This document shows, one piece after another, positions 139-41,583 of a DNA stretch of 64,000 nucleotides; the first letter of the stretch is position 1, and each line of letters starts with the position of its first letter. The stretch comes from Clostridia bacterium (GTDB lineage Bacteria > Bacillota > Clostridia > RGIG6154). Where the stretch lies: contig JAZNOU010000001.1 in the NCBI GenBank assembly GCA_045589295.1, positions 1-64,000 on the forward strand, given 5' to 3'. Below the pieces are notes generated by a model. It was not told the origin of the DNA and did no database searches. It saw only the letters and a list, made by a program, of their open reading frames with translations. The translations under genes were made by a program, and so were the position numbers.

Positions 139-172
139 AAAAAGGAGCAAGGTATATTTCAACCTTGCTCCT
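139..172 (-). terminator. Rho-independent terminator downstream of XRE gene
   Basis: AGGAGCAAGGT/ACCTTGCTCCT stem (143-153/162-172) followed by U-tract on minus strand. Confidence 0.8.
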
Positions 173-198: not shown

Positions 199-210
199 AA
201 ATTGGAATTT
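199..210 (-). repeat. Cassette-boundary site B, copy 1 (AAATTCCAATTT on gene strand)
   Basis: Overlaps TAA stop of 209..817; identical 12-mer at 39446-39457. Confidence 0.8.
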
Positions 211-817
211 ATTTCTTGGTTAGTTTTTTGCACCAAGTCCATTTTCCACATTTAGTACACTTCAACAATCTTCTGGTTGGCGTTTGCATCAACAAGGCAA
301 TCTCTTTATAGTTAGGAACATACATATGTTGACAGTTCTTACATTCATAATACCCTGTCTCTACCTTAAATTTAAGAGCAATAATGCAAGGAATTATAAA
401 TAGTATAACAGACACTATTATCAAAAAGTCTTGAAATCCACATTCAGGGATAAGGAGTGATATTAAAGTCATCAGACAAATAAGTGCTACCAGGCTGGTT
501 GCGACAATCACATATGCGGAATGCAGCAGTCGTTTATGATATCTTTCCTCATTTTTTGCCATCTGAAAAATCAGTTCATTTAATTGTTCATCCTTTTGTT
601 CCATATCAATTATCTCCCCGCATAATAATTCATTTACATTTATTCCAAGAATATAACAAAGGTCGAGCATAATATCGGAATCGGGCATTGCTTTGCCTGT
701 CTCCCATTTTGATATTGCTCTGTCGGTTATATTCAATTTTTCTGCCAACTGTGCTTGTGTAAGATTTTTCTTTTTTCTGCACTCGGCAATAAACTTTCCT
801 ATTTTGATTTGGTCCAT
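209..817 (-). CDS. XRE-family HTH regulator with two TM helices and C-terminal zinc ribbon
   Basis: N-terminal LTQAQLAEKLNITDRAISKWETG HTH_3; hydrophobic segments; CKNC...CTKC; GGAGG RBS. Confidence 0.9.
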   Translation of the reverse strand: MDQIKIGKFIAECRKKKNLTQAQLAEKLNITDRAISKWETGKAMPDSDIMLDLCYILGINVNELLCGEIIDMEQKDEQLNELIFQMAKNEERYHKRLLHSAYVIVATSLVALICLMTLISLLIPECGFQDFLIIVSVILFIIPCIIALKFKVETGYYECKNCQHMYVPNYKEIALLMQTPTRRLLKCTKCGKWTWCKKLTKK

Positions 818-923: not shown

Positions 924-935
924 AAATTCTTATTT
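924..935 (+). repeat. Cassette-boundary site A, copy 1 (AAATTCTTATTT)
   Basis: Identical 12-mer at 39741-39752; 924-943 matches the reverse complement of 191-210 at 16/20. Confidence 0.8.
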
Positions 936-998: not shown

Positions 999-1027
999 AT
1001 TATATCATACTTTTGCTCATTTGTCAC
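999..1027 (-). promoter_or_regulatory. Sigma-A promoter facing the cassette site
   Basis: GTGACA (1027-1022), 17 bp, TATAAT (1004-999), with TG extension. Confidence 0.7.
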
Positions 1028-6281: not shown

Positions 6282-7622
6282 CTATTCCCTTGTATTATCA
6301 ACACTGACAAATGTGGTGTTCTGAGGACGCCACATAAGTTTTACTCTTCCTGTTGAACCACTTCTGTGTTTTGCTATAATAAGCTCTGCCATAGAGTTTT
6401 GACCTTCTTGTTGTTCTTCTTCCTGTTCAGGTTTATATAAGAACATAACAACGTCGGCGTCTTGCTCGATTGCTCCTGATTCTCTAAGGTCTGAAAGTAC
6501 CGGAGTCTTATCCGTTCTTGTTTCAATTGAACGTGAGAGCTGACTTAATGTAAGCACCGGAACCTCAAGTTCTTTTGCCATAACCTTAAGTGATCTTGAC
6601 ATTTCCGAAACTTCCTGTTGTCTGCTTTCAGAACGACCTTTCCCCTGCATAAGCTGTAAGTAATCGACAATTACAAGTCCAAGGCCGTGTTCAAGTTTTA
6701 ATCTTCTGCATTTTGAACGGATTTCTGTTACACTTATCATAGATGTATCATCAATAAAGAGCGGAGCTTCTGACATTGGGACTGCCGCCTGCATTAATCT
6801 TTCCCAATCGCTTGCGTCAAGTCGTCCGGTTTTTAATTTTTCACTATCAACCATTGCCTGTGATGAAATAATTCTGTTTGTAAGTTCTTCTTCAGACATT
6901 TCAAGACTGAAAACCGCAACAGGAATTTTATTTTTAACTGCAACGTGTTTTGCGATATTAAGTGCAAAACTTGTTTTACCAATACCAGGTCTTGCCGCCA
7001 GAATATTCAATGTACCCTTTTGCAAGCCTGACAAAATGTAATCAAGATGAGAAAAGCCGGTTTCTAACCCTGTAATTCTGAGGTTCATACCCTGTAATTC
7101 CTCAAGTCTTGCAAAGTTTCTTTGAATTACATCGCCCATTTTGCTAAAAGATTTAGACATTCTCCCCTGCAAAACATCAAAAATAAGTTTTTCCGCAGTT
7201 TCAGCAATAGCTGCAGGGCTGTCAGATGCCTCATAGCTTAATCTGGAAATATGTCCCGAAGCTTCTATGAGGTTTCTTAAAAGCGCCTTTTCTTTTATTA
7301 TATCAACATAGTATTTAATATTTGCCGTCGTCTGTATACTTATAGCCAGATTTGCTATAAATTCACTTGACCCAACCGTTTCCAAAACTTGTTTTTGTGA
7401 CAAAATATCACACACGGTTACAACATCAATAGGCTTATTCTGTTCAAAAAGTGTGAGCATTGCAGAAAAAACTTCCTTGTTTTCTGCACGGTAAAAATCA
7501 TCAGCTGTCAAGTTTTCAAGAGCTACCGCAACACTTTCTTCATCATTGAGCATTGCGCCTAATACTGACTGTTCCGCCTCTAAACTATACGGCGGAATTT
7601 TAGCGCCTAAATATTCTTCCAT
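6282..7622 (-). CDS. dnaB: Replicative DNA helicase
   Basis: PPYSLEAEQSVLG, ARPGIGKT, VDYLQL, LSDLRESGAIEQDAD. Confidence 0.97.
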   Translation of the reverse strand: MEEYLGAKIPPYSLEAEQSVLGAMLNDEESVAVALENLTADDFYRAENKEVFSAMLTLFEQNKPIDVVTVCDILSQKQVLETVGSSEFIANLAISIQTTANIKYYVDIIKEKALLRNLIEASGHISRLSYEASDSPAAIAETAEKLIFDVLQGRMSKSFSKMGDVIQRNFARLEELQGMNLRITGLETGFSHLDYILSGLQKGTLNILAARPGIGKTSFALNIAKHVAVKNKIPVAVFSLEMSEEELTNRIISSQAMVDSEKLKTGRLDASDWERLMQAAVPMSEAPLFIDDTSMISVTEIRSKCRRLKLEHGLGLVIVDYLQLMQGKGRSESRQQEVSEMSRSLKVMAKELEVPVLTLSQLSRSIETRTDKTPVLSDLRESGAIEQDADVVMFLYKPEQEEEQQEGQNSMAELIIAKHRSGSTGRVKLMWRPQNTTFVSVDNTRE

Positions 7623-37405: not shown

Positions 37406-38097
37406 AGATTTTCAAGTGCACTTTCAACGGTCTGTTTATCAAGGTCAGACAAATATGAAAATTTTTGCAAAAGAGCTTTTTGGAAAAGTTCTTTTGCTTT
37501 TTTAATATTCCCCTGTTTTAATTTAACAAGCCCGTAGTTATAATACGCTTCCGGGAAAGATGGAGTTTTTTCTTGATGCATTTTTTCATAAATTTCTTCT
37601 GCCTTACCAAAATCCTCTAAAAGATAATAGCTAAATGCAAGATTGTCCAAAATCACCGCATCATCAGATGCAAAATCATAAGCTTCCAAATTAAGTTTAA
37701 GTGCTTTTTCGCCATCACCCTGCAAAACATAAAAATACCCTAAATTTCCGTAAACAACAGTATTCTTATAATCTTTTAAAATATTTTCAGTCCTCTTTAC
37801 TGCCTCGTCAAGCTTTCCCTCTTTCCAAAGTAAAAGCGCATAGTTTTGTTCAACCTGAACTTTAATATCCTTAGAACATTTTTTTAGTTGTTTATCAAAC
37901 GGAAATATAAGATTATCAAAGACTTCTCTTGCTTTTAAAAAGTCGCCATTTTTCATAAGATAAAAAGCACAAAAAACTTTCATTTCAATTGTTGCTTTTT
38001 TCTTTTGTATCAATTTTTCAAAAATTTCAAGTCCTTTTTGTTCGTTACCAATAACAATTTGCCCTTTTGCTTTACGAAACAAATGTTTTTCAAACAA
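37402..38097 (-). CDS. Tetratricopeptide repeat protein
   Basis: Repeated TPR-like helices (VYGNLGYFY, LDNLAFSY, AYYNYG). Confidence 0.8.
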   Translation of the reverse strand: MFEKHLFRKAKGQIVIGNEQKGLEIFEKLIQKKKATIEMKVFCAFYLMKNGDFLKAREVFDNLIFPFDKQLKKCSKDIKVQVEQNYALLLWKEGKLDEAVKRTENILKDYKNTVVYGNLGYFYVLQGDGEKALKLNLEAYDFASDDAVILDNLAFSYYLLEDFGKAEEIYEKMHQEKTPSFPEAYYNYGLVKLKQGNIKKAKELFQKALLQKFSYLSDLDKQTVESALENL

Positions 38098-38100
38098 TTT

Positions 38101-39210
38101 TTATTCCCTCTCCCCAATACCTATAATAAACTCACACAAATCACGTGTTGCATAAGGCTTTCCAATGTGCTTTATACCATCGGAAAGATTTTTTATTTTC
38201 CATTCATTATTAAAAAGCTGATAAATTGCTTCATCCACTTTATATGTTGATGTTACAAGCTGTGCCATACCATTATTCAACAAAAATTCAACATTTCTGT
38301 CTTCCTGACCGGGTATAGGATTTATTAAAATAAGGGGCATTCCTTTTGCCAAACTTTCCGAAACTGTAAGACCACCCGGCTTTGTAATTATACAATCTGA
38401 TGCATCCATTAAAACATCAACATTATTCACAAAACCGTAGCAATAAATTATCTTTTTTGTATCAAGCGTTTCAATTCTGCGCTTTAATGATTTGTTACTT
38501 CCACATACAACAATTATCTGAAAATCAAGCTCTAATTTATCAAGCTCTTTTATGCGTTTTACAACTTTACCAAAGCCCATAGAGCCACTCATCACCAAAA
38601 CAGTAGGTTTTTCCTCAATACCAAGCATTTTTCTTGCCTGACTTTTAGGAATTTTCTGTGCAAATTTTTCATCAATTGGTATGCCGAAAGGTTTTATCTT
38701 TTCAAGCGGAATATTCTTTTTTTGTGCCTGACAATTTAACAACTCGGATGCTGTCACATAATAATCAAGTGTAGTTTTCTGCCAATACGGATGTATAGTA
38801 TAGTCGGTAATAATTCCTACAGTAACAACATCTGACAAAATTTCTTCACCCAAAGCATTAATCATATGTGCTGCCATAACGTGCGTGGCAATAATAACAT
38901 CCGGATTATATGCCTTTACAAACTTGGCAAACTTTATTTTCATAACCTTATTTGCCGCCTTTAACATATAAAGCTTGTCATAAGGGTCGCTTATCTCTGC
39001 CATTCTGTAAAATTTGCCATAAACATTTGGTGCATATTTTGTTGAAGCAAGGTAGCCTTTTTGAACACTTCCGCCTAAAAGCTTGCTTACATATTTGTAA
39101 ACATCAATAAGCTTTGCTTCGTGCCCATGGCTTTTTATATATTTTTCTATTGCCGCACCGGTAGACAAGTGTCCACCGCCGGTTGGTATTGTAAGAACCA
39201 ATACTTTCAT
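38101..39210 (-). CDS. MGDG synthase / UgtP-like glycosyltransferase
   Basis: TGGGH, ITDY..HPYW, GIPI, ITKPGGLT, PIPGQE.RN. Confidence 0.9.
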   Translation of the reverse strand: MKVLVLTIPTGGGHLSTGAAIEKYIKSHGHEAKLIDVYKYVSKLLGGSVQKGYLASTKYAPNVYGKFYRMAEISDPYDKLYMLKAANKVMKIKFAKFVKAYNPDVIIATHVMAAHMINALGEEILSDVVTVGIITDYTIHPYWQKTTLDYYVTASELLNCQAQKKNIPLEKIKPFGIPIDEKFAQKIPKSQARKMLGIEEKPTVLVMSGSMGFGKVVKRIKELDKLELDFQIIVVCGSNKSLKRRIETLDTKKIIYCYGFVNNVDVLMDASDCIITKPGGLTVSESLAKGMPLILINPIPGQEDRNVEFLLNNGMAQLVTSTYKVDEAIYQLFNNEWKIKNLSDGIKHIGKPYATRDLCEFIIGIGERE

Positions 39211-39445
39211 TTTTTCTACTTCCTTTTATAAATAAATTGCAAACATTTTCAAATTCACATTTATTTTAATATGACAAAACTATCCACTTGTCCACTGCAA
39301 GAGAATTAACAACTTTACTTATATTCCCTGAATTGTACGGATACTCCATCGGGGTCATAAACATAAAAACTGCGAGGCATAAAGTTTAGATGCAAACCCT
39401 TTTTGATGGCTGCTCATGTCAAGCTATAACTAAAAACATATAAAT

Positions 39446-39457
39446 AAATTGGAATTT
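39446..39457 (-). repeat. Cassette-boundary site B, copy 2
   Basis: AAATTCCAATTT on gene strand, 2 bp after stop; identical to 199-210. Confidence 0.8.
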
Positions 39458-39459
39458 GT

Positions 39460-39726
39460 TTATTTCTTTTTTCGTATAGGTACAATTACCTTTAACAGCA
39501 GTATAATAACAGCTATCAGGAAAAGTTGTATAAGGATAGCATAAATTATAAGACCCCGCGATTCGTAATAACACAACTCGTCCCACCAAACAACGACTTC
39601 AAAAATCGCAGTCAGTAAAATACTAAACCAAACATATCTACGATTGATAAAGAAAAATACAAAAGATAGGATAAATGTCGGTAAAACTTTTGGTAATAAA
39701 AGATATTGAATGATTATTGTTAGCAT
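39460..39726 (-). CDS. Small three-TM membrane protein (88 aa), unknown function
   Basis: Three hydrophobic segments, YYESRG loop, basic C-terminus; GGTGGTG RBS. Confidence 0.75.
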   Translation of the reverse strand: MLTIIIQYLLLPKVLPTFILSFVFFFINRRYVWFSILLTAIFEVVVWWDELCYYESRGLIIYAILIQLFLIAVIILLLKVIVPIRKKK

Positions 39727-39740
39727 AATGACACCACCAC

Positions 39741-39752
39741 AAATTCTTATTT
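39741..39752 (+). repeat. Cassette-boundary site A, copy 2
   Basis: AAATTCTTATTT identical to 924-935; 14 bp upstream of ATG. Confidence 0.8.
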
Positions 39753-40152
39753 ATCTGTTTGACATTTTTACGACATACTTTGCGTCAGGCTCAGGATGAC
39801 GAATATCAGACGGATTCATACCAAGCAAAACAGCCTTACTGTGCACCGTCTCAAGGTTATCTGTAGCAAAGCATAAAAACATACCTTTGCCCTCAAACAC
39901 TTGGCCTTCAGGCATAGCAATTAATTCTACTTCGGTATCGTTTTCAGAATCATAAAGATAAGCAACATTTCCACCGCCTGCAGAAAATTGCTTACCAATC
40001 TTAAGTTGGACAAGTTCGGTATAAAAATTTAAAGAATTTTCAAAATTTTTTACTCTTAACGATATGTGATGAAATTTAATATTAATTTCCCTTTCTAAAA
40101 TTCCTCTCTGACATAAGCAGGCTCTGCTCGTTGATTAAGACTGGTCTAAACA

Positions 40153-41583
40153 TTATATTCTTTTATACAATTCATTCAGCCTAATATATTTATTTTTATC
40201 AATAGATAAAAGCTGGTCTTTTGTAATTCTGAAACGCCAATTACCATCTGCTTGTCCCGGGATATTCATTCTTGTATCCGAGCCATAGCACAACAAATCT
40301 TGAATGGGAAGAATTACAATGCCTGCATTACTCATAAAGACTGCTCTTAAGATGCTGTCAATTCCATTTCCCCAATCTTCCGAGAAATAGTTACAGTATT
40401 CCAACATTCTTTTTTTATTGTCCATATCAAGTTCCCATAAATATCCTAAAAGTGTATTATTGTCGTGAGTGCCTGTATATGCAACACAATTATTTATGTA
40501 ATTATGAGGCATATGAGGGTTATCATAATCACCTAAAAAGCCAAATTGGAACACTCGTATTCCCGGCAAATTGTTATCCTCTAAAAGCTTAACTACCTCC
40601 TCAGTAATTTCACCAAGGTCTTCTGCTATAATAAGCTTATCGGAAAAACGGGAATTGATTTTTTCTATAAAATCCGTTCCCGGTCCTTTAATCCACTTAC
40701 CATTTTTTGCGGTCTTACTGCCATAGGGTACTGCCCAGAATGATTCAAGTCCGCGGAAATGGTCAATCCTTACCCCATCAAAAAGTTCGGTCATATAAGC
40801 GATTCTTTCCATCCACCAGCCAAAACCGTTTTCTCTCATTTTTTCCCAATTGTAAAGAGGATTTCCCCAAAGCTGACCATCCTCACAAAAATAATCTGGC
40901 GGAACACCCGCAACAAGAGTTGGCTTATCACCGTCAAGCAAAAATTCTTCCTTATTGGACCATACATCAGAGCTGTCAAAAGAAACATATATTGGTATAT
41001 CACCTATAATTTTAATTCCTTTTTCATTTGCATAGGCCTTTATATCAAGCCACTCATTTATAAACTCATATTGAATAAATTGCCACATAAAAAGAGTTGC
41101 AGGGTCATAATCTTCCCTGGTCCACAAGTTCCAGGGCTTGTTTTCATTTGCATCTTTTTTTGCCATAAACAGGCAAAAATTATTTACCAAAGGTCTGGCT
41201 TCGATATAGGAAGACACCTTATTTTTATCAACCACTCTGGACGACGCCTTCATAAGAAGAGTAAAGCGCTCCTCCCACAGTCTTTCATACTCAGCACCAT
41301 AAGGCTGAGCCTGCCTTGCAATGTCAAGCTCATCCTTAGTGACAAGTCCTTTTTTAAAAAGTATTTCCAAATCCACAAAATAGGGATTACCAGAAAAGGC
41401 ACTGTACGACTGATAAGGTGAATTAAAGCTATCTGCCATATTGAACGGCAATACCTGCCAGTATGAAAACTTACATTCACTTAGAAAATCAACAAACTCC
41501 TTTGCGGCCTCTCCAAAACTACCTATGGAATAATCCCCATACAATGAGGATATATGCATTAAAACCCCGCTTTTTCTTTTCAT
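40153..41583 (-). CDS. malQ: 4-alpha-glucanotransferase (GH77)
   Basis: SGVLMHISSL, SPYQSYSAF, AGVPPDYF, RIDHFRG, AEDLG, YTGTHDN. Confidence 0.96.
   Translation of the reverse strand: MKRKSGVLMHISSLYGDYSIGSFGEAAKEFVDFLSECKFSYWQVLPFNMADSFNSPYQSYSAFSGNPYFVDLEILFKKGLVTKDELDIARQAQPYGAEYERLWEERFTLLMKASSRVVDKNKVSSYIEARPLVNNFCLFMAKKDANENKPWNLWTREDYDPATLFMWQFIQYEFINEWLDIKAYANEKGIKIIGDIPIYVSFDSSDVWSNKEEFLLDGDKPTLVAGVPPDYFCEDGQLWGNPLYNWEKMRENGFGWWMERIAYMTELFDGVRIDHFRGLESFWAVPYGSKTAKNGKWIKGPGTDFIEKINSRFSDKLIIAEDLGEITEEVVKLLEDNNLPGIRVFQFGFLGDYDNPHMPHNYINNCVAYTGTHDNNTLLGYLWELDMDNKKRMLEYCNYFSEDWGNGIDSILRAVFMSNAGIVILPIQDLLCYGSDTRMNIPGQADGNWRFRITKDQLLSIDKNKYIRLNELYKRI

Follow-up and report, generated by a model that had tools for sequence, protein, structure and literature searches.

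The first 64,000 nucleotides of contig JAZNOU010000001.1 of a Clostridia bacterium (GenBank:GCA_045589295.1), hereafter called the window, contain two unrelated genes, one encoding an 88-amino-acid (88-aa) membrane protein and the other an XRE-family regulator, each enclosed by the same pair of inverted 12-nt words, and the question raised by this arrangement is what such a pair of words does. A preliminary description, made from the letters of the window, had read the words as sites of a capture and exchange system for single-gene cargo, with the recombinase encoded elsewhere. We give about even credence to the reading that the words, here named site B (upstream of the gene) and site A (downstream), are the joints of a one-gene cargo slot, the DNA between them being exchanged and fixed flanks, termed chassis, supplying the rest. 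Cargo swaps and the positions at which likeness between genomes breaks off bore the preliminary interpretation out in part; the ends of the one insertion seen directly, which lie outside the 12-mers, the 16-mer consensus proposed for the sites, and the search for a recombinase did not.

On the + strand of the window, AAATTGGAATTT was found at 199-210 and 39446-39457 (site A of the XRE and 88-aa slots, respectively) and AAATTCTTATTT at 924-935 and 39741-39752 (site B), exactly where they had been reported. The sites are 12-18 bp long, have 5-nt arms about a 2-nt centre, and are AT-only except in that centre. They had also been said to play the same roles at both genes, which held for site A and only loosely for site B, because the latter precedes the ATG of the 88-aa gene by 14 nt and sits 107 nt upstream of the XRE gene; site A lies 2 nt past the stop of the 88-aa gene on the gene strand. 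Inside the window alone, the four 12-mers are not beyond chance. In the 1.54-Mb source genome, the two words occurred 3 and 4 times against Markov expectations of 1.2-3.3 and 2.2-3.8, so that no enrichment over background was seen, and the proposed 16-mer consensus matched its four founding sites and nothing further. Within the window, 1383 canonical 12-mers recur, colinear double-12-mer configurations numbered 231 compared with a mean of 130 in 20 simulations, and double pairs of inverted look-alike words numbered 2, at least one such configuration being present in 37% of 300 simulated windows. These counts are what would be expected if the pairing of the four 12-mers were a chance find in AT-rich DNA. 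Such an origin is nevertheless hardly credible, being contradicted by the recurrence of the pair, with extended context, around at least nine different cargos in other genomes; it is because of other genomes only, through the linkage of B to A and the pairing of their arms described below, that the pair goes beyond chance.

Comparison with relatives (genomes numbered G, loci numbered L) revealed two chassis. Chassis 1, which holds the 88-aa gene, has the order TGTCGAA-like boxes, B, cargo, A, U1 module and a 26-nt core, whereas chassis 2, which holds the XRE gene, has the order promoter, B, cargo, A and terminator. Different cargo between the same flanks, as foreseen in the preliminary description, was found in both. 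The six cargos of chassis 1 are 1) the 88-aa protein (window), 2) GrpB (G005), 3) DUF1349 (G012), 4) EamA (G002), 5) GNAT (L080), and 6) a DUF3784-like membrane protein (L118), and the three of chassis 2 are the XRE regulator (window), an AAA_18 ATPase (G007:C2) and a third one cut by the contig end (G005:C46). In chassis 1, 5′ likeness ends past GAATTTG and 3′ likeness resumes at AAATTCC, with none in between. The block containing site B is kept in 10 loci, in which likeness stops directly past GAATTTG in the 5′ alignment, and loci with unlike cargo become alike from site A onward in the 3′ alignment; the U1 module that follows was 88-93% identical in G005, G012 and G002. Linkage of B to A was examined in 937 kb of core-bearing loci, where all six complete open reading frames (ORFs) after a box-preceded B site were then followed by an A-like site directly past the stop.

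In chassis 2, the putative promoter, which was read from the sequence by eye, lies in a flank conserved in G007:C2 and G005:C46. The former contig has the two flanks at 88% and 86% identity, with the ATPase gene between B and A, and the latter has the promoter flank, a B variant and the truncated third cargo. The upstream flank common to the window and these two contigs ends past GAATTTG, and the downstream likeness of the window to G007:C2 begins at the XRE site A despite the unlike cargo. It was also noticed that G003 carries the XRE gene at 84% identity in other flanks, the likeness to the window spanning the cargo and the inner halves of both sites; it begins with GAATTT and ends with AAATTC, i.e. 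at the centre of both 12-mers. As for the 88-aa gene, its homologues in L179 and L184 diverge directly past site A, and one contig of sequencing run X1 stops being alike 2 nt outside this site. The expectation that cargo likeness stops at the sites was therefore realized, the breaks lying at the inner or the outer edge or, in the case of XRE in G003, at the centre of both. In all seven complete units of chassis 1 and chassis 2 the cargo is forward, and no strand-switch joint was present in contigs. The sites behave as joints of cargo and chassis, and are present in two chassis with nothing else in common.

These breakpoints also bear on the possibility that B, cargo and A form a small non-autonomous transposon with imperfect terminal inverted repeats of 14-18 bp, which inserts repeatedly at preferred spots of the chassis. 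The arms are indeed inverted and match at 12 of 14 positions, and whole sites accompany the 88-aa gene into unrelated flanks. However, the cargo in G003 has kept no more than the inner halves of the sites, no target duplication was found beside either arm in any unit read, neither an empty chassis nor an adjacent B-A pair was present in the loci or the source genome, and no cognate transposase is known for such repeats. We regard this transposon as quite unlikely.

Beyond what the preliminary description had seen, a larger mobile unit exists around the 88-aa gene. Public contigs from sequencing runs were compared with window positions 38300-40900, and contigs in runs X2 and X4 (studies P2 and P4) revealed an empty allele, which joins 39368 to 39775 and skips 406 nt, with an ambiguity of 1 nt and nothing in between; the filled form is present in run X1. 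On the gene strand, the 406-bp unit begins with the first TGTCGAA-like box and ends with the final base of the core. The insertion produced no target duplication, there is no core at the target, and the ends are not inverted repeats. Removal of the 406 nt restores the reading frame of a glyoxalase/VOC gene, and therefore the cassette interrupts a coding gene. The start codon of the VOC gene (40078-40080) is ATT in the source genome and ATG in the X1, X2 and X4 contigs; therefore, the strain has a second lesion in this gene. The earlier statement that both the 88-aa and XRE genes lie in inserted DNA was borne out for the former only, by the empty allele. A contig of the RNA run X19 matches the window exactly as far as 39775 and is unlike it over the following 622 nt, as would fit the same 5′ end of the unit in another context; the 88-aa gene itself appears in this run in short contigs only, which are uninformative on its expression.

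A search of 17 other genomes of the same family did not find the 88-aa gene. Its homologues (n=27) show 51-97% identity, and one of them is from a named organism, Oscillibacter sp. PC13. In the 32 loci examined out of 35 metagenome loci with 88-aa homologues, neither the core (with up to 3 mismatches) nor an exact 12-mer was present, and homologues in core-less taxa retain a related site pair. The remark that the gene leaves no room for a promoter holds, since a promoter scan of the gene strand gave no sigma-70-like site ahead of the ORF. An Rfam scan of window positions 38000-41000 gave nothing relevant.

When relatives were searched with window positions 38900-40400, about 100 nt downstream of the 88-aa gene were found to recur at 88-96% identity in many places, being better conserved than the neighbouring housekeeping genes. 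The core was found in 42 copies in loci from 9 relatives and in at least 154 unique copies from at least 120 further contigs of uncultured gut Clostridia. Its spread is wide and patchy: the exact core occurs in 42 of 401 sampled Clostridia genomes, belonging to 24 of 216 genera, with 1-13 copies each, compared with none of the 401 for the reversed core used as control. The copy in the window contains a 7-bp hairpin, 11-12 nt from the 3′ end of the unit. Cores often stand in arrays on one strand, such as that of G011:C7 with six in 2.3 kb, and 76 single-ORF units (72 of them unique, 85-639 aa) were found between two cores. A typical junction of such an array consists of a stop codon, the U module, the core, 8-9 nt, two TGTCGAA boxes, a ribosome-binding site (RBS) and ATG. 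Breakpoints of likeness pile up at the 3′ edge of the core; out of 741 ends of shared stretches near cores, which are stretch ends and not independent events, 89 fall at core position +25 and 52 at +26 (141 together).

Several other features were observed in the core-bearing loci. A DUF559 endonuclease-like gene is the cargo met most often near cores, with 14 ORFs in 13 of 136 loci (among them L062, L077, L081, L091, L118, L155, L167, L172 and L173), always wrapped in GC-rich hairpins, unlike the rest of the AT-rich arrays. Units without an ORF also lie between cores (L011, 7066-7262 on the - strand and 7290-7500), and further ones occur in L012, L047, L073, L080, L093, L134, L146, L151 and L173. 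These ladder units consist of a constant 8-9-mer repeated 4-5 times and then its reverse complement repeated 4-5 times, with differing mini-hairpins of 10-19 nt between the copies; the constant word varies by locus, and the predicted fold has an energy of -63.7 kcal/mol (z-score -3.5). Rfam applied to seven array loci gave only two sub-threshold matches to Gut-1 (34 and 30 bits; gathering score 50), both on ladders. A single exact core was found in viral contigs, at a contig end.

An explanation in terms of gene control also has to be weighed. In it, a transcription factor would bind the 12-mers as operators, and the core, boxes and U module would make up a shared promoter-operator region, controlled for instance by Spo0A, whose modules spread by duplication and homologous recombination. 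Site A of chassis 1 forms a 9-2-9 palindrome, and B occupies an operator-like place, with DNA of the promoter side before it and the RBS after it. The boxes agree with the Spo0A box, for which the excerpted text of PMC3485338 gives the 7-nt consensus TGTCGAA, and a spo0A gene is present in the source genome; 94 tandem-box sites fit the consensus and are candidate Spo0A boxes. However, the core fits no sigma-70 consensus in scans, the identity of 26 nt over at least 24 genera exceeds what a promoter needs, homologous recombination requires identity longer than 12 nt, and the clean insertion of 406 bp into a coding gene is left unexplained. We consider control by such operators very unlikely as an account of the sites.

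With regard to promoters, the core had been considered as a sigma-70 promoter itself (TTGCAT, 17 nt, CAATAT), a candidate that was rejected because promoter scans did not pick it up; a scan of the six cores of the L047 array likewise found no sigma-70-like promoter. A second module is often found 3′ of the core (24 copies in L057-L176, e.g. L084, L092 and L139); it comprises an A-run, TGGCATC and GATTATACAGTCTTTATA, and reads as a sigma-70-like -35/-10 pair before the TGTCGAA boxes. At 49 of the 94 tandem-box sites, the 45 nt upstream contain no core; therefore, the modules combine freely.

The complementarity of B and A raises a further alternative, namely that both are RNA elements, the 5′ untranslated region pairing with the stretch past the stop so that a long-range stem closes the ORF. 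Their roles would be in stability, processing or translational control, the sites would be conserved for expression, and the cargo would change by other means. Of the 20 positions compared in the arms of the window unit, 16 form Watson-Crick pairs and 1 a G-U pair, and the mean over 11 units is 14.9 of 20 versus 8.7 of 20 for shuffled arms. Chassis 2 places both sites between promoter and terminator, and in taxa without the core, homologues of the 88-aa gene retain the pair but have altered centres (C:G and G:C in L179; G:C to A:T in L189). On the other hand, the predicted minimum-energy fold of the 416-nt unit does not form the B:A pair and puts site A in a local hairpin (z-score 0.14), 7 or 8 of the 11 units have mismatches at the two central positions, and the XRE gene has its own promoter and operator (palindrome at 870-881/893-904) inside the slot, downstream of B. 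Nor does the RNA explanation tell why two unrelated chassis have only these sites in common, or why the likeness of XRE to G003 breaks in the middle of both sites. We hold it to be unlikely, though it deserves to be kept in view. Pairing of the box module with the U module in RNA was also tried and dropped, the duplex energy being -12.48 versus -11.57 kcal/mol for shuffled 5′ arms (n=44, p=0.16).

A number of findings weigh against the reading of B and A as joints of an exchanged slot. The arms pair equally well with the partners of other units (14.9 own and 15.0 foreign, of 20), and are therefore simply conserved, a result that tells against the RNA explanation as well. Distant homologues of the 88-aa gene keep or improve the complementarity (12 of 12 in L179), and complementarity so kept fits a cis function in expression as well as it fits a recombination site. 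The ends of the sole insertion that was directly seen lie 22 and 77 nt outside the 12-mers. The six and three cargos counted come from few loci, which were found through their carrying the core. Excised, inverted or circular forms, the first two of which the preliminary description had proposed to look for, were not seen in the contigs compared, and contigs cannot show rare forms. Moreover, clustering of 1536 ORFs of at least 90 aa from the 136 core-bearing loci, many of whose arrays are cut by contig ends, revealed no recurrent recombinase, profiles of tyrosine recombinases not being part of the search. Finally, the Y1 transposase is weakly enriched across the class, with matches in 23 of 42 core-bearing genomes versus 120 of 359 others, related genomes in this comparison not being independent.

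Within the family, strong matches to the Y1 transposase were found in 6 of 10 core-bearing versus 0 of 5 core-less genomes. As a partner enzyme it was rejected in view of the weak class-wide enrichment and of the differing element ends; 19 of the 42 core-bearing genomes have no Y1 gene at E <= 1e-15, and the hairpins of the resident IS200-like copies are GC-rich and differ from the core, nothing core-like (up to 4 mismatches) being present beside these copies. One such copy begins the window, where positions 1 to about 140 are its left end, with a GC-rich hairpin at 108-131 and a tnpA gene that runs off the contig start; the source genome has others at the beginning of C7 and at the end of C19. 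The Y2 transposase profile (PF04986) matched in none of 5 genomes, and the control also matched in none of 14 named genomes. Of the 12 matches to the serine recombinase profile (PF00239) in the source genome (G000), eight lie in frames longer than 500 aa and four in open frames of 181-197 aa (C10:59604-60005, C18:15203-15604, C5:166467-166871 and C12:40777-41196), and nothing links any of them to the sites.

If B and A are nevertheless the joints of a cargo slot, they would most likely be so by site-specific recombination, in which a trans-acting recombinase encoded elsewhere than in the slot crosses over at or beside the asymmetric centre of the sites, in the manner of cassette exchange. Chassis 1 together with its cargo would be a non-autonomous mobile unit that inserts without target duplication, and such units may stack head-to-tail after existing cores, giving rise to the arrays. 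In the window, the unit has split the glyoxalase gene, from which transcription probably reads through into the 88-aa gene. It is conceivable, although we doubt it rather more than we believe it, that gut Clostridia harbour an undescribed system of two tiers: an inner one, in which ORFs are swapped between inverted sites of 12-18 bp, and an outer one of mobile chassis that end in an invariant 26-nt core, insert without target duplication and build integron-like arrays, both being served by one or more trans-acting enzymes outside the known cassette systems. If so, uncultured gut Clostridia would shuffle single accessory genes into ready-made expression flanks and stack them, which would explain part of the strain-level variation in gene content. 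Mobile cargo in metagenomes could also be found by a short sequence tag, and the system would point to a recombination enzyme with very short sites, a possible tool. Since public gut samples contain both the filled and the empty allele, the system lends itself to direct tests.

Table. Positions in the 64,000-nt window of the two cargo slots, their sites and the elements around them
Feature	Position	Strand	Remarks
Terminator-like hairpin and T run, downstream flank of chassis 2	144..171	-	Conserved in G007:C2
Site A of XRE slot	199..210	-	Overlaps the TAA stop
Cargo 2, XRE-family regulator (HTH_3)	209..817	-	C-terminal membrane and zinc-ribbon-like parts
Site B of XRE slot	924..935	-	107 nt upstream of the XRE ORF
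Sigma-70-like promoter, upstream flank of chassis 2	999..1027	-	GTGACA, 17 nt, TATAAT; TG before the second hexamer
C-terminal part of interrupted VOC gene, FYVYDPDGVSVQFREYK then stop	39315..39368	-	In frame once 39369-39774 are removed
406-bp mobile unit (boxes, B, RBS, ORF, A, U1 module, core)	39369..39774	-	Inserted in the glyoxalase/VOC gene
26-nt core, 3′ end of the 406-bp unit	39369..39394	-	2 differences from consensus TGCATCTAAACCTTATG-NN-TCGCAAT
U1 module	39395..39445	-	Between site A and core; AT-rich; small palindrome TTGACATG...CCATCAA
Site A of 88-aa slot, gene strand AAATTCCAATTT	39446..39457	-	2 nt past the stop; near-palindrome with its flanks
Cargo, 88-aa membrane protein	39460..39726	-	Without Pfam family
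Site B of 88-aa slot, gene strand AAATAAGAATTT	39741..39752	-	Lies between the pair of boxes and the RBS
Two TGTCGAA-like boxes (TGTCGTA and TGTCAAA)	39758..39775	-	5′ end of the 406-bp unit
N-terminal part of interrupted VOC gene	39775..40080	-	PF00903 profile positions 1-102 of 121

The surroundings of both slots vary as well. Just upstream of the chassis-2 promoter lies an IS1595-like element (window about 1068-2437) with a gene for a 444-aa DDE transposase (1055-2389); its flanks adjoin in G007:C2 and G005:C46, and these genomes therefore have the empty site. Near the 88-aa slot, gene order breaks just upstream of the MGDG synthase gene (window 38101-39210 and L002), and near the same gene in G002 a serine dehydratase-HTH fusion replaces VOC, malQ and glgP.

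A literature search, which was thin, found no published description of such sites or of the core. Among known systems, integrons are the textbook case of gene-cassette capture; they are reported to be rare or absent in Firmicutes. The units described here resemble integron cassettes in that 1) they are mostly promoterless single ORFs (85-639 aa) on one strand in same-strand arrays, 2) each ORF is then followed by a conserved element of about 75-100 nt, and 3) they stack head-to-tail, carry diverse accessory cargo and have their breakpoints at the 3′ edge of the repeat. They differ in that GTTRRRY, the signature of attC, was not found at the 3′ edge of the core in the 154 unique copies of core and U module that were read, and that two adjacent short hairpins take the place of one long imperfect palindrome. 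In addition, ORF clustering of the core-bearing loci found no integrase or attI beside the arrays, the arrays are at many loci per genome, a unit can enter a coding gene without a core at the target, and an extra, inner site pair surrounds the ORF. The pdif modules of Acinetobacter plasmids, an analogue already named in the preliminary description, are similar in having single genes or small sets within inverted short sites and in the occurrence of the same module in different contexts, whereas the present sites are 12-18 bp long and AT-only except in the centre, lack the 11-6-11 layout of the 28-bp Xer sites, and are chromosomal and in Clostridia.

With respect to the outer unit, the miniature inverted-repeat type of transposon differs from it, as inverted repeats are absent from the ends of the 406-bp unit, and a target duplication occurs neither there nor beside B and A. 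Elements of the IS200/IS605 group share the lack of target duplication, the asymmetric ends and the 3′ subterminal hairpin, and an IS200-like element is present in the source genome; the hairpins of the resident element are, however, GC-rich, and no matching 5′ hairpin was seen in the 406-bp unit. According to the excerpted text of PMC4778049, Helraiser, a Helitron, inserts at AT without duplicating the target, and a 19-bp palindrome lies 11 nt before its 3′ end. Compared with Helitron and IS91 elements, the 406-bp unit has end motifs of its own and only one insertion event that can be read; it also shows neither target duplication nor terminal inverted repeats, its insertion between A and T is possible, and its hairpin lies 11-12 nt from the 3′ end. 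This resemblance is a likeness only, because no such transposase was found with the Y2 profile, the control of which was also without matches. As to the inner pair, no inverted form, enhancer or adjacent invertase gene of the kind associated with the small serine recombinases Hin and Gin was seen, whereas the general plan is similar: two inverted dyad sites with a 2-bp asymmetric centre bracket a segment, one pair of breakpoints falls in that 2-bp centre, and serine recombinases are encoded in the source genome.

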